DNA from: Escherichia coli
Lineage (GTDB): Bacteria; Pseudomonadota; Gammaproteobacteria; Enterobacterales; Enterobacteriaceae
Assembly (NCBI RefSeq): GCF_003790525.1
Contig: NZ_CP033635.1
Direction: 5' to 3' (one strand)
Length of the DNA stretch: 64,000 bases
Position 1 is the stretch's first letter, and every line of letters begins with the position of its first letter. The notes below the pieces were generated by a model. The model had not been told where the DNA came from. It made no database searches and saw nothing but the letters and a program-made list of their open reading frames with translations. Positions 14,730 through 58,856 of the stretch are shown one piece after another. The translations under genes were made by a program, and so were the position numbers.

Positions 14730-15965
<1,236 letters not shown>

Positions 15966-16038
15966 ACGCGTGGCGTCAGTCAGCTTGCCTGACTAGCGCC
16001 CGCCCAATAACAAACGAACAAAAATGGATAGAGGTGCA

Positions 16039-17592
16039 ATGGATATCATTGGCGGACAACATCTACGTCAAATGTGGGACGATCTGGCGGACGTTTACGG
16101 TCATAAAACGGCGCTGATTTGTGAATCCAGCGGCGGAGTCGTTAACCGGTATAGTTATCTTGAGTTAAATCAGGAGATTAACCGCACGGCAAACCTGTTT
16201 TATACGCTGGGGATTCGCAAAGGCGACAAGGTTGCTCTACATCTCGACAACTGCCCGGAATTTATCTTTTGCTGGTTCGGGCTGGCAAAAATTGGCGCGA
16301 TTATGGTGCCGATTAACGCCCGCCTGTTACGCGAGGAAAGCGCGTGGATCCTGCAAAATAGCCAGGCGTGCCTGCTGGTGACCAGTGCGCAATTCTATCC
16401 CATGTATCAACAGATTCAGCAGGAAGATGCCACGCAGTTGCGGCACATTTGCCTGACAGATGTGGCACTTCCCGCTGATGATGGCGTGAGTTCGTTTACT
16501 CAACTGAAAAATCAACAACCTGCCACCTTGTGCTATGCACCGCCGCTATCGACTGACGATACGGCGGAAATTCTCTTCACCTCCGGCACTACCTCCCGAC
16601 CGAAAGGTGTGGTGATTACCCATTACAACCTGCGCTTCGCTGGATATTACTCCGCCTGGCAGTGTGCACTGCGTGACGATGACGTCTACCTGACGGTAAT
16701 GCCTGCGTTTCATATCGATTGCCAGTGTACTGCGGCGATGGCGGCGTTTTCTGCCGGGGCCACCTTTGTGCTGGTCGAGAAATACAGCGCCCGCGCCTTC
16801 TGGGGACAGGTGCAGAAGTACCGCGCCACCATTACCGAATGTATTCCGATGATGATCCGTACCTTGATGGTGCAACCGCCTTCTGCGAACGATCAGCAAC
16901 ACCGCCTGCGGGAAGTGATGTTTTATCTCAACTTGTCGGCGCAGGAAAAAGACGCATTTTGTGAACGCTTCGGCGTTCGCTTGCTGACGTCTTATGGGAT
17001 GACGGAAACCATTGTGGGCATTATCGGCGATCGCCCTGGCGATAAACGGCGCTGGCCGTCGATTGGTCGGGCGGGCTTTTGCTACGAAGCGGAGATCCGC
17101 GACGATCACAATCGCCCGCTCCCGGCAGGTGAGATCGGTGAAATCTGTATTAAAGGCGTACCAGGGAAAACCATCTTCAAAGAGTATTTTCTCAACCCGA
17201 AAGCCACTGCGAAAGTGCTGGAAGCCGACGGCTGGCTACATACCGGCGATACCGGATACCGCGACGAAGAGGGCTTTTTTTATTTCGTCGATCGCCGCTG
17301 CAATATGATCAAACGCGGTGGCGAGAATGTCTCCTGCGTGGAGCTCGAAAATATCATCGCCACCCATCCAAAAATTCAGGATATCGTGGTTGTGGGAATT
17401 AAAGATTCGATACGCGATGAAGCCATCAAAGCATTTGTGGTGCTGAATGAAGGTGAAACATTGAGCGAAGAGGAATTTTTCCGCTTCTGCGAACAAAATA
17501 TGGCGAAATTTAAAGTGCCCTCTTATCTGGAGATCAGAAAAGATCTGCCACGTAATTGCTCGGGGAAAATAATTAGAAAGAATCTGAAATAA
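16039..17592 (+). CDS. caiC: Crotonobetaine/carnitine-CoA ligase CaiC
   Basis: Track ORF trimmed to [15 protein letters not shown]...; AMP-binding motif [11 protein letters not shown]. Confidence 0.9.
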
Positions 17593-24253: not shown

Positions 24254-24292
24254 CAGAGAATATTCACTCACTTTATTTGCATATTAATTCAC
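24254..24292 (-). promoter_or_regulatory. Tandem ARG boxes (ArgR operator) overlapping carAB P2
   Basis: On the coding strand: TGTGAATTAATATGCAAA-TAA-AGTGAGTGAATATTCTCT, two 18-bp imperfect palindromes 3 bp apart matching the ARG box consensus, immediately upstream of carA. Confidence 0.5.
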
Positions 24293-24518
24293 AATGATGA
24301 CGTAAATCAATGCAAATCTGCTTACCGACGAATTTCTGGCAAACGGCGGCATTCTGGAGATATGGGAGCTAAAAGTCAACTTAATGGCGGGATTTTTTAT
24401 ATTATTTTGTGGCTCATGCATGTTTTACAGGCATTAAGCGACAAAAAGATCATATAACATGTTCTGGAAAACGCTTGCGCAGCAAGAAGATTGCATGAAA
24501 TCAAAATGAGCAGAAAAA

Positions 24519-34863: not shown

Positions 34864-36903
34864 ATGTCGTTTATTAAGCAAGATCCCCACCGTCTGGTCT
34901 GGCAACAAGACGATCGTTATCTCTGGATTGAAGCCTGGGGCGAAAACAGCTTACGCGTGCGAAGCGGCCGCCATTTACCGGTAATGCGCAATGAAAACTG
35001 GGCGTTAACTCAGGATCCTGGCGATGCTGTCGCTCATATCACCTGGGATGAAAAACAGGCAACGCTGAGAAATGGTAAAATCACTGCCATCGTAAATCTT
35101 CAGGGCCAGCTCTCTTTCTGGCGTAATGATGATAAATGCCTGCTGCAAGAGTTCTGGCGTCAACGTGGCGAAATTGGTGAAGATGAGTCAGCACACGGCC
35201 AATATGTGAGCGCTCTTAATCTACAGGCCCGTGAATTCAAGCCTATTCCTGGCGGGAAATTTACGATTAAGGCACGATTTGAAGCCAACGATGGCGAGAA
35301 ACTCTTTGGCATGGGTCAGTATCAGCAACCAAACCTGGATTTAAAAGGTTGCATGCTGGAGCTGGCACAACGTAACTCGCAGGCTTCTGTTCCCTTCCTG
35401 CTATCAAATCAGGGTTATGGTTTTCTGTGGAATAACCCAGCAATTGGCCGCGTCACCTTCGCGCAAAACGGTACGGAATGGGTAGCAGAAGTCAGTGAAC
35501 AACTGGACTACTGGATCACTGCGGGCGATACTCCGGCTGAGATCAGTGAAGCCTATGCACGAGTAACCGGTACGCCACCGATGATGCCTGATTACGCAAT
35601 GGGGTTCTGGCAATGCAAGCTTCGCTATCGTAATCAACAAGAATTGTTAGAAGTCGCACGCGGCTACAAGCAACGCAATCTTCCGATCTCGGTGATTGTC
35701 ATCGATTTCTTCCATTGGCCGAATCAGGGTGACTGGATGTTCGATCTGCGTGACTGGCCCGATCCCGATGCGATGATCGCCGAATTAAAAGAAATGGGTA
35801 TCGAACTGATGGTTTCATTCTGGCCTACCGTAGATAACCGTACCGAGAGTTATCGGGAGATGAAAGAAAACGGCTGGCTAGTCCACACCGAGCGTGGTTT
35901 GCCTATCAATATGGATTTCCTTGGCAACACCACGTTCTTTGATGCGACACATCCTGGCGCACGGGAATATGTCTGGAACAAAGCCAAACGCAATTATTAC
36001 GATAAAGGCGTGAAACTGTTCTGGCTGGATGAAGCCGAGCCAGAGTTCGGTGTTTACGATTATGACAACTATCGTTACTACGCAGGGCCAGTGCTGGAAG
36101 TCGGTAATATCTATCCGCGTATGTACGCCAAAACGTTCTTCGATGGCATGCAGGCAGCCGGAGAAAAGCAGGTGATCAATTTGCTACGCTGCGCCTGGGC
36201 CGGTAGTCAGAAATATGGTGCCCTGGTGTGGTCAGGCGATATCCACTCCTCCTTCCGTTCTCTGCGCAATCAGTTTGCTGCGGGGCTGAACATGGGAATT
36301 GCCGGGATCCCGTGGTGGACGACGGATATTGGCGGTTTCCACGGTGGCAACATACATGATCCAAAATTTCATGAACTGCTTATTCGCTGGTTCCAGTGGG
36401 GGGTATTCAGCCCAGTAATGCGTTTACATGGCAACCGCGACCCGCAAGTTTTGCCTGAACAACCCTATCGTGATGGCATCGCACAATGTCCGACTGGCGC
36501 GCCGAATGAAGTCTGGAGCTATGGTGAAGAAACCGGTGAAATTCTCACTTCCTGCCTGCAGTTGCGTGAGAAGCTGAAACCTTATATCAGTAAAATTATG
36601 GCTGAGACGCACGAGAAGAACAGCCCGGTAATGCGCACGATGTTCTTTGAGTTTCCAGACCAGGCAGAAAGCTGGAATATTTATGATCAGTACTGCTTTG
36701 GCCCGGACCTTCTCGTTGCCCCTGTAATGCACGAAGGTACACGTTCACGTGATGTCTGGTTGCCTGCCGGAGAGACATGGATCGATTTTTATACCCATGA
36801 ACACTACGCGGGTGGGCAAAAGCTTCATCATTGCGCGCCGCTGCACCAGATACCGGTATTCATTCGTGAGAAAGGGAAATATCGCCAGTTATTACCCGTT
36901 TAA
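34864..36903 (+). CDS. Glycoside hydrolase family 31 enzyme (alpha-xylosidase/alpha-glucosidase/sulfoquinovosidase-like), accessory
   Basis: Track ORF trimmed to ATG at 34864 (RBS GGGAGG); 679 aa; GH31-like motifs around FWLDEAEPE (putative nucleophile Asp) and WSGDIHS (putative acid/base Asp); paired with GPH transporter as in yicJI / yihOPQ. Confidence 0.8.
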   Translation: MSFIKQDPHRLVWQQDDRYLWIEAWGENSLRVRSGRHLPVMRNENWALTQDPGDAVAHITWDEKQATLRNGKITAIVNLQGQLSFWRNDDKCLLQEFWRQRGEIGEDESAHGQYVSALNLQAREFKPIPGGKFTIKARFEANDGEKLFGMGQYQQPNLDLKGCMLELAQRNSQASVPFLLSNQGYGFLWNNPAIGRVTFAQNGTEWVAEVSEQLDYWITAGDTPAEISEAYARVTGTPPMMPDYAMGFWQCKLRYRNQQELLEVARGYKQRNLPISVIVIDFFHWPNQGDWMFDLRDWPDPDAMIAELKEMGIELMVSFWPTVDNRTESYREMKENGWLVHTERGLPINMDFLGNTTFFDATHPGAREYVWNKAKRNYYDKGVKLFWLDEAEPEFGVYDYDNYRYYAGPVLEVGNIYPRMYAKTFFDGMQAAGEKQVINLLRCAWAGSQKYGALVWSGDIHSSFRSLRNQFAAGLNMGIAGIPWWTTDIGGFHGGNIHDPKFHELLIRWFQWGVFSPVMRLHGNRDPQVLPEQPYRDGIAQCPTGAPNEVWSYGEETGEILTSCLQLREKLKPYISKIMAETHEKNSPVMRTMFFEFPDQAESWNIYDQYCFGPDLLVAPVMHEGTRSRDVWLPAGETWIDFYTHEHYAGGQKLHHCAPLHQIPVFIREKGKYRQLLPV

Positions 36904-36924
36904 AGGACATCGTTTGTTCATTAG

Positions 36925-36949
36925 CACGCCCCGTATATAGCGGGGCGTG
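36925..36949. terminator. Bidirectional hairpin between the GH31 gene and nhaR
   Basis: cacgccccgtatatagcggggcgtg perfect stem-loop between convergent genes. Confidence 0.5.
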
Positions 36950-36960
36950 AGTTTTAATAT

Positions 36961-37866
36961 CTATCGTGAGGCGGGAGAAAACAACGAAGAATAATCCGTA
37001 TTGCAGATTCGCTGTACCGCCGGGTGCTGAATCATCCGCTCAGCAAAAATAGCATGGTACTCTTCCATCACATTTTCGACGCGACCAATTTCTACGACAG
37101 TTTTATCGGCATAAAAGTCATATGCATAAAGCGTTGGGGCAACGAAGATTGCATTGTGCATCGCACCAAAAGCTTTCATCAACGCGGCATCATCAAACTC
37201 GCCGAGGATTTCTACGTTTAATCCCTGGGAGTTAAACCAGTTAAGCAATTTGCGCCCTAACATTGAACGTCGCCCAGGAATCAAAAGCCGCCGTTCTTCC
37301 AGACAAGCCGGGAACGGTTTTTCCGGTGGTGGATTTGTACACCAGAAACTCACGCCACATTCGCCAATTCTCACGGAGAACAGACCTTCCTGCTGCGTAG
37401 AATCTATCGGACAGTCGGAAATGATCATATCCAGTTTATGCTGACTTAATTGCTCCAGCAGCATTTCGTGGGTGGATTCGAAGCAGCGAAGATGAATCGG
37501 CTCGCCTTCTACCACTGCGGCGTTAAGTACGCTACTGACCAGGCGTTTAGAAAGTGCATCAGCCACGCCAACGTCAAACAATAAATTGGATTCTTTGCGA
37601 TAGTTCACGATATCCAGCATTTCCTGGCTTAAGGTGAACATTTTATCGGCATAGCGATAGACCAGCTCTCCCAGCTCGCTGGGCTCGAGGCCACGTCCCT
37701 TGCGCTTAAATAATTTGCCTTGCAGGCGCTCTTCCAGCGCCCGAATCTGTCCGGTAATGGTTTGTGGTGTTAAATAAAGCGCCTCCGCTGCGCCAACCAC
37801 GGAACCTTCTTTATAGACATGCCAGAAGTAATACAAGTGGTTGTAATTGATATGAGACATGCTCAT
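36961..37866 (-). CDS. nhaR: LysR-family transcriptional activator NhaR
   Basis: Track ORF trimmed to [45 protein letters not shown]..., 301 aa. Confidence 0.95.
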
Positions 37867-37925
37867 TTCTCTCCCTGATAACAATGAAAAGGGAGCCGTT
37901 TATGGCTCCCCGGTAAACCGTCCTG

Positions 37926-39092
37926 TCAAACTGATGGACGCAAACGAACGCGTAACCAGCTGTATCCAATTACCGCCGAAGAGATAGAACCGACCAGGAT
38001 ACCGAGTTTCGCCCAGTTAATCAGTTCTGGATCTACGCTACCAAAGGCAAGGCTGGCAATAAAGATAGACATAGTAAAACCGATACCGCATAGGATCCCC
38101 ACCGCCATAATTTGCTGATAAGTCGTTCCCTCAGGCAGATGCGCCAGTTTCAAACGCAGCGCCAACCAGCAGAACAGACTAATACCCAGTGGCTTGCCAA
38201 TCAGCAAACCGGCGATGATCCCTAATGGCAGAATGGAGGTCAGGCCATCCAGCGTCACGCCTTGCAGAGATACCCCCGCATTGGCAAACGCAAACAACGG
38301 CAAAATCAGATATGCCACCCACGGATGCAAAACATGCTCCAGACGTTTAGCCGGAGAGCGCCCATGCTTCTCTTTTAACGGAATAAAGAAGCCGACAATG
38401 ACGCCAGCCAGCGTTGCATGGACACCTGATTTCAACACCGCTGTCCACAGTACCACGCCAACCAGAATATAAACGCCCGTGCGACGAACACCACAGATAT
38501 TCAGTACCGCGAGTACGGCAATCGCTACTGCCGCAACGCCGAGAGACGCCATCGATAAGTCATTAGTGTAGAACAATGCGATGATAATGATGGCCCCAAG
38601 ATCGTCGATAATAGCCAGAGCCATCAAAAAGATCTTCAGCGCTAACGGAACACGACTTCCCAACAGCGCCAGCACACCAAGTGCAAAGGCAATGTCAGTA
38701 GCCGCCGGGATCGCCCACCCTTCGCGGGTAATCGGATCGGCATAGTTAAAGGCCAGATAGAGCAATGCCGGCACAATCATCCCACCAATAGCGGCGATAA
38801 CTGGAAATGCGGCCTGGCGTAAGCTGGCTAGCGATCCTTGCATCAGTTCACGTTTAACTTCCAGACCGACTAACAGGAAAAATACCGCCATCAGCGCGTC
38901 ATTTATCCATAACAGCATGTTTTTGTTGATTTCGAGTGAACCAACCCGGAGCTGAACCGGCGTCTCCAGAAAGTCGTGATACCATCCACTGGTTGCGCCG
39001 CTATTGGCCATAATCATCGCCAGGATAGCGGCAATGATAAGAATAATGCCTCCCGAGGCATCACTGCTAAAGAATCGATGCAGATGTTTCAC
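37926..39092 (-). CDS. nhaA: Na+/H+ antiporter NhaA
   Basis: 388 aa [48 protein letters not shown]... Confidence 0.97.
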
Positions 39093-39343
39093 TTTTTATT
39101 TCTCTTTCAGGTGAATAGATCGTTTTTACTATTTTACCCCGCACGAATCATCGTTAAAATCAGATTATAGTGTAGGAATAATTCGTTTTTTACGAACCAT
39201 TGAAGGATTTGTGCCATCAGCGATGAGATGATTTTTTGACGGCTGTAAGCGCTCACGAGTGACCCTAAGCCCTGATAATCATAGCTTAAGGTGAGGATTT
39301 CTGAGGGATTAATTAGGAAAAGTAATAATAAAATCGCACTGTG

Positions 39344-40588
39344 CTATAGCTGTTTATTCCAGAGATGCTTGAAAATATCTAATGTGGAGACAACATTGGC
39401 AGGCGACATTCGGTTTAATGAGGATAGAAAGGGATGAGACTCCAGGAAGTTGATAAAACGAGTCGCGCTTGCTAACGTCGAATACCGCATTTCATTTGCT
39501 TTCTTGTTTCCTGTAAGGTTACAAACAGCCATTGAATAATCACGGGCGGAAAATGTACGCCAAACATTATTTCTCACGCCACCACTCAAAAACAACCGCG
39601 GCGGCGTATCATAATGAGTCGTTTTCTCGCCGCGTTCTTTCACAAATGAAATATGGCACCGGCCTTGATGAATATGCTGTAAATTAGCCATCAGACAACC
39701 ACCTAATATAAAGCACTCGTGATCAAGGTAGTGTTGAATATTTATAGAATATGCTTCAGTCAGTGCTCTAACCAGTTCAAAATGGCGATACGCCGGAAGA
39801 ACCGGTTTCACCAACATCCCCGGATCGTTTTGATGTAATATCGCCCGACCATAATCAATATCAAATAAGGTATCACGCCGCATAGTAAGTAACTCCTTGC
39901 GTTGTACGTGATGCGCCAGTGTACCTGGAGACAAACGCTCTTCATAACTTGATGCATATTGATAATGCGACTCTACCGCTGATGGAGAATAATTTGTTGA
40001 AATAGCGACGACTCTACCGCTTTGTTCTTCTGCGGTAACAAGGCTATAAAGATAGTTATTACTACCGTTAAACTTTACGCGAAAAGCGCGGGTAGATAGA
40101 GAAATATCAGAAGCAGAAGAGTATTGGTAACTTTCTTTATAGTTTACTTCCCGGGCTAGTTTCATCAACTCACGGTTAAGCCCTGTGCTATTAAGAAGTA
40201 ATAATTTACGGATATCTGCAAGTGAAGCGCCTTGATCAATCATCAATGCTAAATGTGTTCTTCGCGGCGTTGTATTTACATGATCCAGAGTGATAAAAGT
40301 TCTGGAACAATGATGACAATACATTCTCCTCTGCCCCTGAGCTGAATAGCCATACTTTTTCAGAGATGTGCTTCCGCAAGCTGAACATTGTGGAACCAAC
40401 CCTCTCCATGAATGATTAACACGATTACGATAAATATTAAGAGATCGTTCAGATATCACAGGAAACAAGTAACCGCATTCCCGACATAAAATATTTTTTC
40501 CTTGTGCAATATAATCCTGGCTATTCAACAACCCCAGGTTTTTGCATCCTGGTGTTTTGCAACAATCAACATTTACGTTGGTAAACAT
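39344..40588 (-). CDS. Hypothetical protein with two N-terminal CxxC...CxxC zinc-ribbon motifs (IS1 InsA / transposase-type zinc finger-like), accessory
   Basis: Track ORF 39344-40624; preferred start at internal ATG 40588 preceded by AGGGAG RBS; motifs CKNLG...CRECG and CSACGSTSLKKYGYSAQGQRRMYCHHCSRTF resemble InsA CPSCSATDG...GHQRYLCSHCRKTW; very AT-rich. Confidence 0.6.
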   Translation of the reverse strand: MFTNVNVDCCKTPGCKNLGLLNSQDYIAQGKNILCRECGYLFPVISERSLNIYRNRVNHSWRGLVPQCSACGSTSLKKYGYSAQGQRRMYCHHCSRTFITLDHVNTTPRRTHLALMIDQGASLADIRKLLLLNSTGLNRELMKLAREVNYKESYQYSSASDISLSTRAFRVKFNGSNNYLYSLVTAEEQSGRVVAISTNYSPSAVESHYQYASSYEERLSPGTLAHHVQRKELLTMRRDTLFDIDYGRAILHQNDPGMLVKPVLPAYRHFELVRALTEAYSINIQHYLDHECFILGGCLMANLQHIHQGRCHISFVKERGEKTTHYDTPPRLFLSGGVRNNVWRTFSARDYSMAVCNLTGNKKANEMRYSTLASATRFINFLESHPFLSSLNRMSPANVVSTLDIFKHLWNKQL

Positions 40589-40717
40589 ATTCACTCCCTG
40601 CGAATACCCGGATATTATCGTCATATGTCAAAGAAAAGAACCTGACTCAATGTGTAACATTGAATCAGGCGGGCATGGCCCTGAAAGGCATACATTACAT
40701 TTATTATGGTTATCAGA

Positions 40718-42211
40718 TTAGCCCCAGGTTACCGCTTCCGGTTTATCACCTCTGGCTTTCATTAATGAATCATTATCAATATCGGCTTTATACTTTAAGA
40801 ACTTACCATACATTTGTTTTTCAATGTCTGGATTTTTACCTATCTGATTAATGGTCTCAAAACGATCGGTTTTGAGGTTGTATAGGTACTTTGGCTTATT
40901 GTTACGATCGATGATCATTTTCCAGTCACCATCACGTATCGCCCATTCGTCGGTTGGATCATCCTGGAATGGCATGTCAATTCCGAAGATTAATGGCTTT
41001 TCACGTTTTAGCGCTTTGTTCTCAAGGACAGGAACCAACGATTCGCCATCAAAAGTCCGGTCCGTCGGTAATTTGAAGTTCATCATTTTCGCCAGCGTAG
41101 GCATCCAGTCCAGACCATAAACAGGCGTATCTGAAACCATTCCCTTTGGAAGATGCTTTCCGTATTTAATAATCGCCGGAACACGGATGCCACCTTCCCA
41201 GAGATTATCCTTGCGACCACGTAATCCATCAGTTTCCCCTGCCAAATTCAGTTCATAAACTTTGCGCGCTTCACGCGTTACTGGTCCGTTATCACTGGTA
41301 AAAATAACGATGGTGTTATCTTCTTCACCCATCGCTTTGATTTTATCCAGTACTTTTCCAACCTGAGCATCCAGATAACTGATGTTGGCATAATATTCTC
41401 CTGTACCACGCCAGGGTTTATCCGCCCAGTCGCCATAAAATAAATCAGGATGCTGCTTCTGATAGTCGCTCATATATTGTGAGTACATGTCGAGGTATTT
41501 TTTGGGCGAAGCCAGGGGACTGTGCACTTCGGTAAAAGCGACATAAAGGAAGAAAGGCTTACTGTCCTTTTTGTTATCCAACCAGTTGACGACTTCCGAA
41601 CTGACATACTCACCACTCATTTTATCGGAACGTGGTGTGGGTTGCCCGTTACGCAACCAGCCCGTTGGATAGACCATGCCAAAACGGGGACGCTCCTTCG
41701 CATTATCCAGAGTAGCGTCGGTAACAAAACCCGCCGTATTAACCAGTGAGTAATCAAAGCCCATATCTTTTGCCTGCGGCTGATCGGTGCGATCGCCGCC
41801 TGCATTCAGATGCAGCTTACCCATCATGGCCGTGTCGTACCCTTGCGCTTTGAGTAGATTAGCAATCGTGAGTTCATTACGCCCTAATGCCACATCTTTT
41901 CCCGTTGGGATCCATGAGCGTATGCCGGTACGAAATGGCATCCGCCCTGTTAATAGTCCCGCCCGTGAAGGAGAACTTAAGGGGGCAGGTGCATAATAGT
42001 CGGTAAATTTGACGCCTTCCTGGGCAAGCCTGTCTATATTGGGCGTTTTAACGATCTGATGTCCATATGTTGCCAAATCACCATAGCCTAAATCATCCGC
42101 CATAATGATGACTAAATTGGGTTGTTTAGTTTCGGCGGCTACGGCTGGATTAAAAGCATTCCCTGTGCAAACTGCAAGGCCGATCAAACTGGCCATTAAT
42201 GTTTTCTGCAT
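40718..42211 (-). CDS. Secreted Ser-type sulfatase (arylsulfatase A family), accessory
   Basis: Track ORF trimmed to MQKTLMASLIGLAVCTGNAFNPAVAA (signal peptide); IIMADDLGYGDL and sulfatase signature LSSPSRAGLLTGR with Ser in place of the formylglycine-precursor Cys. Confidence 0.85.
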   Translation of the reverse strand: MQKTLMASLIGLAVCTGNAFNPAVAAETKQPNLVIIMADDLGYGDLATYGHQIVKTPNIDRLAQEGVKFTDYYAPAPLSSPSRAGLLTGRMPFRTGIRSWIPTGKDVALGRNELTIANLLKAQGYDTAMMGKLHLNAGGDRTDQPQAKDMGFDYSLVNTAGFVTDATLDNAKERPRFGMVYPTGWLRNGQPTPRSDKMSGEYVSSEVVNWLDNKKDSKPFFLYVAFTEVHSPLASPKKYLDMYSQYMSDYQKQHPDLFYGDWADKPWRGTGEYYANISYLDAQVGKVLDKIKAMGEEDNTIVIFTSDNGPVTREARKVYELNLAGETDGLRGRKDNLWEGGIRVPAIIKYGKHLPKGMVSDTPVYGLDWMPTLAKMMNFKLPTDRTFDGESLVPVLENKALKREKPLIFGIDMPFQDDPTDEWAIRDGDWKMIIDRNNKPKYLYNLKTDRFETINQIGKNPDIEKQMYGKFLKYKADIDNDSLMKARGDKPEAVTWG

Positions 42212-42230
42212 AATTATTCCCTGATGAAAA

Positions 42231-42992
42231 TTAGAAATCATAACCAAGCATATAAATCATTTGATCGCCAAAACCATCGTAGCCCAACTTATTATCGAAA
42301 TAACGCCACGTCACACTGGCTTTCCAGCGAGGATAGAACTTCCAGGCCACTGTTAAACCGCCATTTAGCCCATTCCGACCAAATTGTTGTTCCGCATAGG
42401 CATCATTTCTGTCCAGTTCTATTTCATTCCAGTTAGATAAAACAAATTTTTCGTCAAATAACGTAAAAGGTAATACTGCTGTCCAGCCAACAACATAACC
42501 ATTCCAGCCATTTGTTTGTCCATATTTGGCTGAGACGTAGTCTCCAGATTGATTATGTAATCCAATATACGGTTTAAAAAACCCCCATGAACCATTCCAG
42601 CCGAGGTAGCCCAAACCATAAAACATATCAAGATCGTCACCCCATGAGTTATCCCATTGACCATAGATCTTGCCAAAGAAAGTCATATTGGAGTCAAAGA
42701 GTCTGACATGTGTCATAGCAGAAACGGTATGATTACGCCCCGCTACGGCATGGTTAAGCACATTGCTTTCATAAAATGAGTAAAACTCGGCTTCTTTAAA
42801 ATTCACACCAAAGTCTGCAGTCACTTTCCATACTTCACCACGATGAGTGTTAACGAAGCCACTATTCCAGTCAGCATAACCTGCATTTATTGAGCCAAAG
42901 GAACCTTTATATTCTAATGAAGAATATGCAGGAAGGTGATAGAAAATCGTTGTCAGGGCACACGCAATAAGAAGCCGTCTTTTGGCAGACAT
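42231..42992 (-). CDS. Tsx-family outer membrane channel protein, accessory
   Basis: 253 aa with signal peptide, aromatic-rich beta-barrel-like sequence ending ...MIYMLGYDF (compare Tsx C-terminus ...VVGYNF); RBS GGAGAG; 19 nt upstream of sulfatase gene. Confidence 0.7.
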   Translation of the reverse strand: MSAKRRLLIACALTTIFYHLPAYSSLEYKGSFGSINAGYADWNSGFVNTHRGEVWKVTADFGVNFKEAEFYSFYESNVLNHAVAGRNHTVSAMTHVRLFDSNMTFFGKIYGQWDNSWGDDLDMFYGLGYLGWNGSWGFFKPYIGLHNQSGDYVSAKYGQTNGWNGYVVGWTAVLPFTLFDEKFVLSNWNEIELDRNDAYAEQQFGRNGLNGGLTVAWKFYPRWKASVTWRYFDNKLGYDGFGDQMIYMLGYDF

Positions 42993-43500
42993 ATAATATG
43001 CTCTCCATTCATTTTTTTTATGGTTCCATAGAAATCAATACATCAGATAATTCATTTTGATTAAGAACGACTCAGAAAGTATATTTAAAGGTGAATGGCA
43101 AAGCGTGATGGAGATCGCAGATTACTTTTACCCCCGGGTGTGGAGGTATCGTGTTTCAAAAAGTGTGTCGATTTTAAATATCACTCATTGATTTATAAAC
43201 ATTTTTCCTCACAAAAAGAAAATTCAATTCTGTACAAGAATATTTTGTATCTTCTATTACTTTCTCCAGTAATAACTCACCATTCAGGCATAACTTAAAC
43301 CTCTTGTTCATAATCTCAACTTTTGTAAATGAAAACGCACATAAGAGTTAAAATAAACAATGTACTAAAGATTGATTACGCAAAAATGCGAGGCGTCTTC
43401 AGGATTAGAATCGATAAAACAGAATGGGTTAAAGAGAGCGATATAATAGCGGCGGGTGCTTGAGGCTGTCTGTCTCAGGCATTAGCTGAACGGCAGATAG

Positions 43501-43555
43501 AGAAAAGCCCCGAGTGATATTTTACCATCAACCCGAGGCCCCCTATATGCAGAAC
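43501..43555 (-). ncRNA. sokC: sokC antisense RNA (position inferred from K-12 hokC/sokC geometry)
   Basis: Placed by conserved offset relative to the mokC start; antisense to the mokC 5' region; boundaries approximate. Confidence 0.35.
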
Positions 43556-43756
43556 ACATGTAGAGTGCCTCTTACTGACCGTAAGGTCAAGGAGAAGAGA
43601 GCAATGAAGCAGCATAAGGCGATGATTGTCGCCCTGATCGTCATCTGTATCACCGCCGTAGTGGCGGCGCTGGTAACGAGAAAAGACCTCTGTGAGGTTC
43701 ACATCCGAACTGGCCAGACGGAGGTTGCTGTTTTCACGGCTTACGAATCCGAGTAA
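43547..43756 (+). CDS. mokC: MokC, overlapping regulatory reading frame of the hokC toxin locus
   Basis: 69-codon frame MQNTCRVPLTDRKVKEKRA-MKQHKA... co-terminal with hokC. Confidence 0.65.
   Translation: MQNTCRVPLTDRKVKEKRAMKQHKAMIVALIVICITAVVAALVTRKDLCEVHIRTGQTEVAVFTAYESE
43604..43756 (+). CDS. hokC: Type I toxin HokC (Gef)
   Basis: 50 aa MKQHKAMIVALIVICITAVVAALVTRKDLCEVHIRTGQTEVAVFTAYESE recognised as Hok/Gef family toxin. Confidence 0.9.
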   Translation: MKQHKAMIVALIVICITAVVAALVTRKDLCEVHIRTGQTEVAVFTAYESE

Positions 43757-43830
43757 GAGCAACGGCGGGGAGTGATCCCCGCCACTTTACAGGTGCTCGC
43801 ATATCTTCAACGCACCCTATTTTTACCCTG

Positions 43831-43856
43831 GCCTGCCCACGGGCAGGCTTTTGGGG
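43831..43856 (+). terminator. Stem-loop plus T-run at 3' end of hokC transcript
   Basis: gcctgcccacgggcaggc followed by ttttgggg, 75 nt after hokC stop; IS186 that follows hokC in K-12 is absent here. Confidence 0.45.
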
Positions 43857-43859
43857 AGG

Positions 43860-44990
43860 TTAGCGAGTCAGGTCGTCAAAAAACTTCTTCACACCATCAA
43901 AGAAGCTCTTTGAACGCGGGCTGTTGTGCTCGCCGGTTGGGCCACCGAAGCTTTCCTGCAGCTCTTGCAGCAGCTGTTTCTGCTTCTCGTTCAGACCTAC
44001 CGGTGTTTCGACGACAACGCGGCACAGCAAGTCCCCTTGCGCACCGCCGCGAACAGACTTGACGCCTTTACCACGCATACGGAACAGCTTACCGGTCTGG
44101 GTTTCGCCAGGCACTTTCAGTTTGACGCGACCATCAAGGGTCGGTACTTCGATTTCGCCACCCAGCGCTGCCATCGCGAAGTTGATCGGGACTTCGCAAT
44201 ACAGGTTGTTACCTTCACGCTCGAAAATCGGGTGCTGTTTAACCTGAACCTGAACGTACAGATCGCCTGCCGGTGCGCCATGCTCGCCCGCTTCACCTTC
44301 GCCCGCAAGACGGATGCGGTCTCCAGTGTCCACCCCTGCCGGGATTTTAACGGACAGCGTTTTGCTGCGCTCAACACGACCATGACCATGACATTTGTTG
44401 CACGGATCTTTGATCAGCGTACCGCGGCCCTGACAGTGTGGACAGGTCTGCTGTACAGCGAAGAAGCCCTGGCGCATCTGCACCTGACCAGAACCATGAC
44501 AGGTCGGACAGGTCTGCGGCTGTGTACCTGGTTTTGCACCGCTACCGTGGCAAACGTCACACTCTTCCAGAGTCGGAATGCGGATCTCTTTGGTCACGCC
44601 ACGTACAGCTTCTTCGAGGGTGAGCTCCATGTTATAGCGTAAATCAGCACCGCGCGCCGCACGTTGACGACCACGTCCGCCGCCAAAAATATCGCCGAAA
44701 ACGTCACCAAAAATATCGCTGAAGTCTGCGCCGCCGCCAAAACCGCCGCCGCCCATGCCGCCTTGCTCAAACGCAGCATGACCATACTGATCGTATGCCG
44801 CACGTTTTTGCGAGTCGGTCAGAACTTCATAAGCTTCCTTGATCTCTTTAAATTTCGCCTCGGCCTCTTTGTCACCCTGGTTACGGTCCGGGTGGTATTT
44901 CATGGCCAGGCGTTTGTAGGCCTTTTTGATTTCACGCTCTTCCGCTGTTTTGGAAACGCCTAAAATCTCGTAATAATCTTGCTTAGCCAT
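43860..44990 (-). CDS. dnaJ: Chaperone DnaJ (Hsp40)
   Basis: Track ORF trimmed to [40 protein letters not shown]...; J-domain HPD, Gly-rich linker, four CxxCxGxG zinc motifs. Confidence 0.97.
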
Positions 44991-45078
44991 CTTTTTTAAA
45001 TTGCCCCTAGATGAATGCACGGGCGGAGAGGAAATTCCCCTTCGCCCGTGTCAGTATAATTACCCGTTTATAGGGCGA

Positions 45079-46995
45079 TTATTTTTTGTCTTTGACTTCT
45101 TCAAATTCAGCGTCGACAACATCGTCATCTTTCGCGTTGTTTGCAGAAGCATCAGCACCGGCAGTCTGCTGCTGGGCATGTTGCTGCTGGGCGATTTCCA
45201 TCAGTTTCTGGGAAACCTGTGCCAGTTCCTGCATTTTCGCTTCGATAGCGGCTTTGTCTTCACCTTTCAGAGCAGTTTCCAGTGCAGTCAGTGCAGACTC
45301 GATAGCAGTTTTGTCGTCAGCCGGCAGTTTGTCGCCTGCTTCTTCAACCTGCTTACGGGTGCTGTGCAGCAGATGGTCGCCCTGGTTGCGAGTCTGTACC
45401 AGCTCTTCAAACTTACGGTCAGCTTCGGCGTTAGCTTCTGCGTCGCGTACCATTTTCTGGATTTCATCTTCGTTCAGACCAGAAGAAGCCTTGATGGTGA
45501 TCTTCTGCTCTTTACCGCTGTTTTTATCTTTCGCGGAAACGTGCAGGATACCGTCAGCATCGATATCGAAGGTAACTTCGATCTGCGGCATGCCGCGCGG
45601 TGCCGGGTTGATACCATCCAGGTTGAACTGACCCAGAGATTTGTTATCAGCCGCACGTTTACGTTCACCCTGCAGCACGTGGATGGTTACCGCAGACTGG
45701 TTGTCTTCAGCGGTAGAGAACACCTGGCTGTGCTTGGTCGGGATAGTGGTGTTTTTCGCGATCAGCGTCGTCATCACACCGCCCATGGTTTCGATACCCA
45801 GAGACAGCGGGGTAACGTCCAGCAGCAGTACGTCTTTCACGTCACCAGTCAGAACACCACCCTGAACAGCAGCACCGATTGCTACAGCTTCGTCCGGGTT
45901 AACGTCTTTACGCGGCTCTTTACCAAAGAATTCAGCAACTTTCTTCTGAACCATTGGCATACGAGTCTGACCACCAACGAGGATAACGTCGTCGATATCA
46001 GATACGGACAGGCCAGCGTCCTGCAGTGCAACTTTCAGCGGCTCAATGGAACGGTTTACCAGATCTTCAACCAGGCTTTCCAGTTTCGCACGAGTCACTT
46101 TGATGTTCATGTGTTTCGGACCGGTCGCGTCTGCAGTGATGTACGGCAGGTTAACGTCGGTCTGCTGAGCGGAAGACAGTTCGATTTTCGCTTTTTCTGC
46201 CGCTTCTTTCAGGCGCTGCATTGCCAGCGGATCGTTGCGCAGGTCAATGCCCTGATCTTTCTTGAATTCTTCAACCAGGTAGTTGATCAGACGGCTGTCG
46301 AAGTCTTCACCCCCCAGGTGGGTATCACCGTTGGTTGCCAGAACTTCGAAGGTTTTTTCGCCGTCAACTTCGTCGATTTCGATAATAGAAATATCGAAAG
46401 TACCACCACCCAGGTCATAAACCGCGATAGTACGGTTGCCAGTACCTTTGTCCAGACCGTAAGCCAGCGCAGCTGCGGTCGGTTCGTTGATGATACGTTT
46501 TACTTCCAGACCAGCGATACGGCCTGCGTCTTTGGTTGCCTGACGCTGAGCATCGTTAAAGTATGCCGGTACGGTGATAACAGCTTCAGTTACCGGTTCA
46601 CCCAGGTAATCTTCAGCGGTTTTCTTCATTTTTTTCAGCACTTCAGCAGAGATCTGCGGCGGTGCCATTTTCTGGCCTTTAACTTCGACCCATGCGTCGC
46701 CGTTATCAGCAGCAATAATTTTGAACGGCATGATGGAAACATCACGCTGTACTTCTTCGTCCTGGAAGCGGCGGCCAATCAGGCGTTTAATCGCAAACAG
46801 GGTGTTTTGCGGGTTCGTCACTGCCTGACGTTTAGCCGGCTGACCAACCAGAGTTTCACCATCCTGGGTATAGGCAATGATAGAAGGCGTGGTGCGATCG
46901 CCTTCGGCGTTCTCCAGTACACGAGGAGTGGTGCCATCCATAATCGCTACACAAGAGTTGGTAGTACCCAGGTCGATACCAATTATTTTACCCAT
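45079..46995 (-). CDS. dnaK: Chaperone DnaK (Hsp70)
   Basis: 638 aa [65 protein letters not shown]... Confidence 0.98.
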
Positions 46996-47042
46996 CTAAA
47001 CGTCTCCACTATATATTCGGTCATCATGTGGTTGTGAGTCTG

Positions 47043-58732: not shown

Positions 58733-58770
58733 AAAAAAAAAGCCCGCACTGTCAGGTGCGGGCTTTTTTC
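58733..58770 (-). terminator. thr operon attenuator (Rho-independent terminator)
   Basis: Reverse strand: GC-rich hairpin agcccgcacctgacagtgcgggct followed by a T-run, between thrL and thrA. Confidence 0.85.
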
Positions 58771-58787
58771 TGTGTTTCCTGTACGCG

Positions 58788-58856
<69 letters not shown>

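Follow-up and report, generated by a model that had tools for sequence, protein, structure and literature searches.

The uninterrupted hokC/mokC/sokC locus beside dnaJ in Escherichia coli retains the elements of R1 hok/sok save one loop motif

The described systems closest to the locus considered here are the hok/mok/sok (parB) locus of plasmid R1 and the chromosomal hokC loci of Escherichia coli strains K-12, ECOR24 and NRG857c. In K-12 MG1655, hokC (gef), mokC and sokC (sof), annotated as b4412, b0018 and b4413, carry IS186A (15387-16731), which begins 19 bp after the hokC stop, and, as the first-pass annotation of the present DNA correctly stated, the literature regards the K-12 hok loci as inactivated (PMC7232551, PMC12214031). 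The hok-1 locus of the AIEC strain NRG857c, a strain of another phylogroup than ours, is a hokC homologue at about 15.5 kb that lies beside a genomic island and was called an 'intact locus lacking IS elements' (PMC7232551), in a report that noted only the absence of IS, with no RNA element analysis. The IS-free hokC of ECOR24 went further into the laboratory: by the account of Pedersen & Gerdes 1999 given in bioRxiv 10.1101/2025.08.07.668861 it showed neither post-segregational killing or plasmid stabilisation nor activation by rifampicin, and its transcript is put at about 330 nt (PMC3562002). Plasmid stabilisation is thus mediated by R1 and reportedly not by chromosomal hokC.

The locus described here lies within a 64,000-nucleotide stretch of the E. 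coli contig NZ_CP033635.1 (the window, whose plus-strand coordinates are used unless noted). It extends over about 43442-43852, from the promoter -10 through the terminator, and its comparison with the systems above points, with a probability of about 0.9, to the ancestral, uninterrupted allele of the E. coli chromosomal hokC/mokC/sokC type I toxin-antitoxin locus, convergent with dnaJ. An IS-free hokC/mokC/sokC locus beside dnaJ is real, and it is already known, having been described and tested in 1999. A start at 43501, as first proposed, is too far downstream, since it cuts off the tac element (43454-43465) and the hok promoter -10 (43442-43447). The window is 100% identical across 11 kb to E. 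coli SMS-3-5, where PGAP annotates mokC adjoining dnaJ, and 43454-43606 fits the Rfam sok/hok-leader model RF01794 over its full length with 116.9 bits (gathering score 59, E=1e-27), far beyond chance; a minus-strand match to the Rfam model rpsL_pseudo (19.6 bits, gathering score 70, E=0.3) was dismissed as fortuitous. In comparison with K-12, HokC is identical and neither the sokC promoter nor the position beside dnaJ differs, the DNA being 99.2% identical as far as the IS186 junction (43381-43779) and 97% identical beyond the insertion point. Three SNPs separate the two alleles (window/K-12: 43422 G/A, 43541 C/T and 43551 A/T), and the window, unlike K-12, has a 4-kb island between hokC and nhaA and lacks IS186, so that its 3' hairpin runs on uninterrupted into fbi and the terminator.

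The published hok elements present here are the promoter -10, tac, ucb, the mok Shine-Dalgarno (SD), dcb, the post-stop GC hairpin, fbi and the terminator, to which sequence and the mapping of the K-12 annotation add the sokC promoter and RNA. Comparison with R1, a check that had been suggested for the initial reading, bore it out for tac, fbi, ucb and the sokC promoter and went against it in one place: the U-turn (YUNR) motif of the Sok-target loop is absent from the window allele. R1 and the window otherwise agree in element order, in the spacing of the -10 and in having a GC hairpin behind the stop codon, a terminator beyond fbi and a Sok promoter that overlaps the GCCTCTTAC box; their predicted folds, full-length and truncated, are alike as well. 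They differ in that R1 Hok is about 40% identical to HokC, with about 60% mean column identity in a six-sequence family DNA alignment, and in that mok is in frame with hok in hokC and out of frame in R1.

The main features lie where they were first placed, in agreement with the frames, the inverted repeat, the Pfam match and the MG1655 annotation. The hokC gene (43604-43756; SD AGGAG at 43590-43594) encodes a 50-aa toxin that matches Pfam HOK_GEF (PF01848) with 85.5 bits against a cut-off of 22 (E=1.8e-24). The protein is WP_000809168.1, annotated as a type I toxin under that accession in a K-12 derivative and in SMS-3-5 as well, and it is identical among distant lineages (K-12, SMS-3-5, APEC and B2-type strains). 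The mokC frame (43547-43756) has 69 codons, MQNTCRVPLTDRKVKEKRA followed by HokC, and agrees with the MG1655 mokC annotation; its ATG at 43547 lies 57 nt before that of hokC at 43604, so the two share a frame as well as a stop, and its SD, GAGG, is at 43535-43538, 8 nt upstream of the ATG. A 95-aa ORF antisense to hokC and an 80-aa GTG-extended frame were set aside as mechanical ORFs.

Transcription would start from a promoter whose -10, TATAAT (43442-43447), is invariant in 8 E. coli alleles, the sequence upstream of the hexamer diverging; R1, R27, pnd-like, hokB and plasmid hokD-like loci have a TAnnAT hexamer equally far ahead of tac. The -35 region of the window promoter is poor and not conserved, and for want of a -35 the hok promoter was not called in a strict consensus promoter scan. 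The scan made two calls, both on the minus strand (a promoter-like site and a hairpin within hokC), about as many as chance would yield. The full-length hokC mRNA would be about 400 nt (43454-43852), its 5' end placed by the start of the Rfam model and by homology to R1 +1 and its 3' end by the terminator, with an end just past fbi, near 43820, also possible. The region of this mRNA is almost invariant in 8 alleles of different lineages, variation being found upstream of the -10 and in the spacer between fbi and the terminator.

The predicted fold of the full-length mRNA (MFE -168.6 kcal/mol, z=-7.0 versus shuffles) keeps its closing 5'/3' stem in the centroid structure. In it tac, GGGUGCUUGAGG (43454-43465, conserved across the family), is paired with 43805-43817, and nucleotides 43507-43511 of ucb, the upstream complementary box AAGCCCC (43505-43511; GCCCC invariant in 6 family members), are paired with the mok SD region 43535-43539. 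When the molecule is truncated to 43454-43785, tac is instead predicted to pair with ucb (43505-43511), and the mok SD region 43535-43539 with dcb, the downstream complementary box GCCUC (43567-43571), which belongs to the GCCTCTTAC box that is nearly invariant in the family. Either way the mok SD is predicted to be sequestered, with ucb as its partner before truncation and dcb after it. Both folds emerge from unconstrained energy minimisation, an R1-type locus folded in parallel behaves alike, and the predicted switch between full-length and trimmed forms agrees with the model in PMC9841398.

The translational activator element, tac, finds its partner in the fold-back inhibition element fbi, CUUCAACGCACCC (43805-43817), which is invariant in 7 IS-free E. 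coli alleles and forms 12 bp with tac in both the MFE and the centroid structure; the helix contains a single bulged C (43811) and a single G-U pair, where R1 has an internal G-G mismatch. The assertion that the 3' fold-back element is intact thus stands, fbi being contiguous with hokC and predicted to pair with the 5' end of the mRNA. Across the family the tac/fbi pairs carry compensatory changes (R1 GGCGC/GCGCC, pnd-like GGGCGC/GCGCC, R27 GGUGC/GCACC, hokB GGGUGCCUGAGA/UCUCAUGGCACCC), and the pair GGGUGCUUGAGG/CCUCAANGCACCC recurs in about 40 distinct prophage or plasmid relatives. The formal covariation count was limited to the proximal 6 tac/fbi pairs, because MAFFT loses the structural register in the distal half, where the positions of bulges and internal loops differ among R1, pnd, R27 and hokB; over these pairs 94% of cells are paired, against 33-62% when the strands are slid, with one compensatory pair (U-A to C-G), and the test is weak, as it has 6 sequences and 43 of 500 shuffles do equally well. 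The energy of the tac/fbi duplex, -18.3 kcal/mol, is not rare: 38 of 1156 random 110-nt windows and 115 of 1000 shuffles attain it. Since it is uninformative by itself, the case for fbi rests on position, homology and family covariation.

The antisense RNA sokC (minus strand, 43555 to 43497; 59 nt) was mapped from MG1655 16952-17010 through the 99.2% identical alignment and overlaps the initial 9 nt of mokC. It is predicted to fold into a single-stranded 5' tail of about 12 nt followed by a terminator hairpin and U-run (-20.7 kcal/mol, z=-3.7). Its promoter (minus strand, 43562-43590) has a -35 TTGACC (43590-43585), a 17-nt spacer and a -10 CACTCT (43567-43562), and is homologous to the R1 Sok promoter TTGCGC-17-TATCCT; the -10 is a poor match to the consensus, though identical to that of K-12, where sokC is an annotated RNA and the whole of 43556-43600 is the same. 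In the truncated fold the Sok target (sokT) is displayed as a hairpin loop, CAGAACA (43550-43556), where K-12-type alleles read CUGAACA, a YUNR U-turn. The difference is the A/T SNP at 43551, which changes mokC codon 2 from Leu in K-12 to Gln in the window and, in giving CAGA for CUGA, removes the YUNR motif. In R1 this U-turn is decisive for fast Sok binding (PMC6562991). The loop carries A in 1898 of 5426 complete E. coli genomes (about 35%) and T in 3473, and most relatives read AUG-CU... at this place; ECOR24 may carry the CUGA allele rather than the CAGA of the window.

Downstream of the hokC stop stands a GC-rich hairpin, GGCGGGGA/TCCCCGCC (43764-43783), a perfect 8-bp inverted repeat and the target of IS186. 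Its R1 homologue is the hairpin at +342 to +361, where the 361-nt processed form of R1 ends, and by analogy the window hairpin would form the 3' end of a processed hokC mRNA of about 330 nt. The predicted processed form, 43454-43783, matches in length the transcript of about 330 nt reported for ECOR24; both loci are chromosomal and IS-free, with an intact fbi and a cis-encoded SokC. A second hairpin, the terminator-like GCCTGCCC-AC-GGGCAGGC with TTTT (43831-43852), consists of a perfect 8-bp inverted repeat (43831-43848) and a T-run (43849-43852) oriented for hokC, lies 75 nt past the hokC stop and 8-11 nt away from the stop of dnaJ (43860-43862, minus strand), and is shared with the convergent dnaJ. 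A consensus terminator scan did not call it, as its T-run has only 4 T. It is invariant in 7 alleles. It could be supposed that this hairpin terminates the dnaKJ operon and not hokC, whose mRNA would then end just past fbi: the hairpin is 11 nt downstream of the dnaJ stop on the minus strand, R1-type +398, which we take to be the full-length 3' end, falls right past fbi and ahead of the next hairpin, and the spacer between fbi and the hairpin (43818-43830) varies. Such an arrangement seems unlikely, however, because the minus strand past the hairpin reads CAGGGTAAAAATA, with no U-run, against UUUU on the plus strand, and because every hok relative that was examined has its own hairpin and U-run 10-25 nt past fbi whatever the neighbouring gene; nor are roles in dnaJ and in hokC mutually exclusive.

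No IS186 lies between hokC and dnaJ in the window, as had been observed, and the site at which it would insert, where the window reads GGCGGGGAGTGATCCCCGCC, is present as a single, unduplicated copy. The K-12 target-site duplication, GGAGTGATCC, corresponds to window 43769-43778, the occupied site reading ...GGCGG GGAGTGATCC [IS186] GGAGTGATCC CCGCC.... The implication that the uninterrupted state is something special did not survive a wider comparison: it is the commonest state, shown by 3791 of 5426 complete E. coli genomes (about 70%), and it had previously been noted in NRG857c and ECOR24. The hokC leader was recovered from 5374 of the 5426 (99%). IS186 junctions occur in 840 genomes with the element oriented as in K-12 and in 953 with it reversed; together these exceed the 1635 genomes without an uninterrupted match by about 160, so the two junction counts overlap or take in other junctions. 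About 30% of E. coli genomes, K-12 included, have IS186 inserted into the GC hairpin, an insertion that separates hokC from fbi and the terminator. In other strains IS186 sits in the same hairpin in either orientation, and it is also found in hokE and in plasmid hokD-like loci.

By homology to R1 hok/sok, a weak constitutive promoter with its -10 at 43442-43447 would produce the mRNA of about 400 nt in a closed form, in which the 5' tac pairs with the 3' fbi and ucb sequesters the mok SD, so that neither ribosomes nor Sok could act. Slow 3' exonucleolytic trimming to the GC hairpin (43764-43783) would strip off fbi, whereupon tac and ucb would pair and the mok SD/dcb hairpin would form, displaying the Sok-target loop. 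SokC (43555 to 43497) would then bind the processed mRNA through its single-stranded 5' tail, blocking translation of mokC and, by coupling, of hokC, and triggering decay of the duplex. Transcript ends, processing, Sok action and toxicity are here transferred to the window locus by analogy.

Structurally the locus is intact. The further step suggested in the first-pass annotation, from intact to functional, is unwarranted given the negative results reported for ECOR24 (bioRxiv 10.1101/2025.08.07.668861) and an allele that lacks YUNR, and in laboratory culture chromosomal hokC is probably silent. A fully active killer module, in which the disappearance of SokC, as when rifampicin arrests transcription, leaves processed hokC mRNA to be translated and the cell killed or arrested, would accord with the presence of all structural elements and their R1-like folding, with the toxicity of the overexpressed HokC peptide (bioRxiv 10.1101/2025.08.07.668861), with a locus that almost every E. 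coli carries in well-conserved form, and with the finding that R1 hok kills from one chromosomal copy when Sok is absent (PMC9841398), which means that copy number is not limiting. We nevertheless think it quite unlikely, for the IS-free hokC of ECOR24 reportedly gave neither post-segregational killing nor rifampicin activation (Pedersen & Gerdes 1999, through bioRxiv 10.1101/2025.08.07.668861), roughly 30% of genomes carry and tolerate IS186 in the 3' hairpin in one orientation or the other, and alleles with nonsense or tac-mismatch changes exist.

Much of this would suit an inert relic that is transcribed and never productively translated, kept only through linkage to dnaKJ and because it costs nothing, with hairpins that serve mainly as the dnaKJ terminator and as a landing pad for IS186. 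In addition to the negative functional tests in the literature and the recurrent insertion of IS186 in both orientations, one may cite the premature stop in allele 30859_5#287, the A-C mismatch in tac of 2012C-4606, the loss of YUNR in 35% of genomes and the position of the terminator hairpin 11 nt from the dnaJ stop. This is conceivable, if doubtful: distant lineages share an identical HokC, 99% of genomes have the leader, and tac, ucb, dcb, fbi and the two hairpins show no variation where the flanking non-coding spacers do, a pattern of conservation that suggests purifying selection on RNA elements without a role in dnaJ termination.

As a discovery the IS-free, ancestral-type hokC carries little weight, being known since 1999, routinely annotated and the majority state in E. 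coli; the window does present a typical intact allele for the question restated in a 2026 preprint, namely whether chromosomal hok loci have any effect when expressed natively. The A/T polymorphism of the Sok-target loop provides a concrete variable for functional tests of chromosomal hok. At its most speculative, the CAGA allele together with an intact fbi could leave SokC control kinetically weakened and allow toxin production on transcription arrest or phage infection, unlike the ECOR24/K-12-type allele, the recurrent IS186 insertions then being a selected rewiring and not mere target preference; we regard this as very improbable. Within hokC, the UACG motif of the Tyr47 codon (43742-43745) is a reported site of TadA A-to-I editing (Tyr to Cys), for which 9% editing has been reported in K-12 hokC mRNA (PMC12214031).

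The 50-aa frame at 43604-43756 (+), which translates as MKQHKAMIVALIVICITAVVAALVTRKDLCEVHIRTGQTEVAVFTAYESE, matches Pfam HOK_GEF at 85.5 bits, and Rfam RF01794, the hok leader/sok region, aligns end to end at 43454-43606 (116.9 bits, E ~1e-27). The mokC start at 43547, in frame with hokC, matches the MG1655 annotation exactly. The hokC/mokC/sokC locus reported in the first-pass annotation is real, far beyond chance. The region 43400-43900 is Escherichia coli chromosome, and the 11 kb from 36000 to 47000 are 100% identical to E. coli SMS-3-5 and a dozen other strains. RefSeq gene order in these SMS-3-5-like strains is nhaR, nhaA, an IS1/IS1595 zinc-domain protein, a sulfatase, an OmpK-like porin, mokC, dnaJ and dnaK, where the name mokC covers the 50-aa frame; the HokC protein accession is common to a K-12 derivative, SMS-3-5 and several other lineages. 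Between nhaA and hokC, a 4,051-bp island (39330-43380) carrying the IS1/IS1595 zinc-domain protein, sulfatase and OmpK/Tsx-like porin replaces 125 bp of K-12 sequence and ends on its right side ~60 bp before the hokC -10; in ~1269 of 5426 complete genomes, coverage of the 11-kb query containing it is 80% or more.

Reading the window beside an R1-type hok/sok locus from a plasmid assigned the individual elements, all on the plus strand unless stated. The hok promoter -10 (TATAAT, 43442-43447) precedes the mRNA 5' end with its tac element (43454-43465, GGGUGCUUGAGG), followed by the upstream complementary box ucb (AAGCCCC, 43505-43511), the mok SD (GAGG, 43535-43538), the mokC ATG at 43547, the Sok-target loop (CAGAACA, 43550-43556), the downstream complementary box dcb (GCCUC, 43567-43571) and the hok SD (AGGAG, 43590-43594). 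Beyond hokC lie a GC hairpin (43764-43783, GGCGGGGA/TCCCCGCC), the fold-back inhibition element fbi (43805-43817, CUUCAACGCACCC), a terminator-like hairpin (43831-43852, GCCTGCCC/GGGCAGGC plus UUUU) and the dnaJ stop (43860-43862), on the minus strand opposite hokC. The antisense sokC, mapped from MG1655 16952-17010, runs from 43555 to 43497 on the minus strand, and its promoter (TTGACC-17 nt-CACTCT) lies in a stretch identical to K-12. The interval originally proposed, 43501-43860, leaves out tac and the hok promoter.

As the first-pass annotation had stated, K-12 carries IS186 just downstream of hokC: in MG1655, IS186A occupies 15387-16731, 19 bp past the hokC stop, with junctions GGCGG-GGAGTGATCC-[IS186]-GGAGTGATCC-CCGCC. 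The insertion breaks the GC hairpin, parting hokC from fbi and the terminator. Since the window carries a single unduplicated GGCGGGGAGTGATCCCCGCC at the target, it represents an empty IS186 site without a footprint. The hokC-to-dnaJ interval is uninterrupted in 3791 of 5426 complete E. coli genomes (70%), so that the IS-free hokC is the norm and K-12 the minority state; the K-12-orientation junction was found in 840 of the 5426 and the opposite orientation at the same place in 953, both counts being approximate and somewhat overlapping. Different strains carry IS186 (annotated as IS421 family) in this hairpin in one orientation or the other, and the element also occupies the corresponding hairpin in hokE, in hokD-like genes of P1-like plasmids and in a hokC on a viral contig (comparison loci L002, L005, L007, L017 and L084), which indicates repeated, independent insertion into a favoured site. 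IS186 reportedly prefers G-run/C-run palindromes as sites, a preference attributed to SaiSree et al. 2001, and the hits at the hokE, hokD-like and viral-contig hairpins fit it. In E. coli HS-02 (NZ_CP172818.1), whose locus is otherwise 100% identical to the window, 27 additional bp, CCCATTTTTTTTTTTTTTTTTGGGAGA, lie precisely at the IS186 target (equivalent to 43776/43777); they may be a scar left by excision, or an artefact of assembly.

Folded without constraint, 43454-43854 reaches -168.6 kcal/mol (z=-7.0 versus dinucleotide shuffles), and both the MFE and centroid predictions pair the 5' end (43454-43465) with 43805-43817, and ucb with the mok SD region. When the RNA is trimmed to 43454-43785, ending at the GC hairpin, the predicted fold moves tac onto ucb, and the mok SD and dcb form a hairpin with the Sok target as its 7-nt loop. 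The R1-type sequence, folded likewise, behaves identically, and the hokC predictions agree with the full-length/trimmed refolding model summarised in PMC9841398. The ECOR24 hokC transcript of ~330 nt (PMC3562002) has the length of window 43454-43783, the predicted processed form. SokC is predicted to fold into a ~12-nt free 5' tail and a terminator hairpin (z=-3.7).

On duplex energy alone, the fbi call is not strong: the tac/fbi duplex (14-nt 5' end against a 110-nt stretch) has -18.3 kcal/mol, a value reached in 3% of random windows of the same sequence and 11% of shuffles. Support for the assignment comes instead from position and relatives. A segment complementary to the locus's own 5' end also occurs in R1-type, R27, pnd-like and K-12 hokB loci and in ~40 distinct prophage/plasmid hok loci, 20-25 nt beyond the GC hairpin that follows the stop codon and 10-25 nt ahead of a terminator. 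Differences are compensatory at position 4 (U-A in hokC, hokB and R27 versus C-G in R1 and pnd) and, in hokB, at positions 7 (U-A to C-G) and 12 (G-C to A-U). A formal covariation count over six sequences, confined to the six pairs kept in register by MAFFT, found 94% of cells paired versus 33-62% with the partner slid, and one doubly changed pair; 43 of 500 shuffles matched it.

Across eight alleles drawn from different lineages, only scattered single changes occur in the transcribed stretch from tac through fbi. The elements tac, ucb, dcb and fbi and the two hairpins do not vary, with two exceptions of one substitution each: in tac of 2012C-4606 and in the 3' arm of the GC hairpin of APEC 102026. 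By contrast, variation is free ahead of the -10 and in the 13 nt that separate fbi from the terminator. B2-type alleles (L013-L015) diverge sharply from the window at 43425-43441, just upstream of the -10, so that within E. coli the hok promoter has an invariant -10 but an unconserved -35 region. Together with a hokC leader in 5374 of 5426 genomes, the invariant elements favour maintenance by selection. Against selection stand the 30% of genomes with IS186 and two natural alleles that look defective from their sequence: isolate 30859_5#287 has a nonsense mutation at hokC codon 3 (CAG to TAG, aligned to 43610), and in 2012C-4606 the fifth position of tac (43458) is A instead of G, giving an A-C mismatch with fbi, along with a second change in the adjoining stem.

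The suggested comparison with R1 bore out tac/fbi, ucb, the Sok-target hairpin and the sokC promoter, but not the YUNR motif in the loop, a U-turn that in R1 is decisive for rapid Sok binding (PMC6562991). The window loop, AUG-CAGA, lacks YUNR, and differs from the K-12-type AUG-CUGA at 43551 (A in the window, T in K-12); most relatives read AUG-CU. The same A makes mokC codon 2 Gln, as against Leu in K-12, O157 and others. The predicted hairpin is the same for both alleles, the difference being confined to the loop. This polymorphism is clean and common: among complete E. coli genomes, the exact 40-mer with A is present in 1898 and that with T in 3473. It argues against regarding the window allele as a textbook-complete locus.

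The earlier interpretation is partly supported: an intact locus with its fold-back element is present, whereas its function stays putative. The IS-free arrangement has been described before and is the usual state in E. coli. ECOR24 hokC/sokC is the IS-free counterpart of K-12 gef/sof (PMC3562002). According to the summary of Pedersen & Gerdes 1999 in a 2026 preprint (10.1101/2025.08.07.668861), an IS-free hokC has in effect already been put through the rifampicin killing test and came out negative; this published evidence on an equivalent allele, as relayed there, goes against a functional locus. The same preprint includes the HokC peptide among controls toxic when overexpressed, and treats the functionality of chromosomal hok loci as an open question.

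The Tyr47 codon (43742-43745) lies within UACG, the reported context of TadA A-to-I editing, which would recode Tyr to Cys; hokC mRNA is 9% edited in K-12 (PMC12214031). Further Rfam matches above gathering score, all on the minus strand of the window, are the Thr operon leader (58733-58852), ES003 sRNA (24292-24344) and tpke11 (44991-45068), the last sitting in the dnaK-dnaJ spacer.
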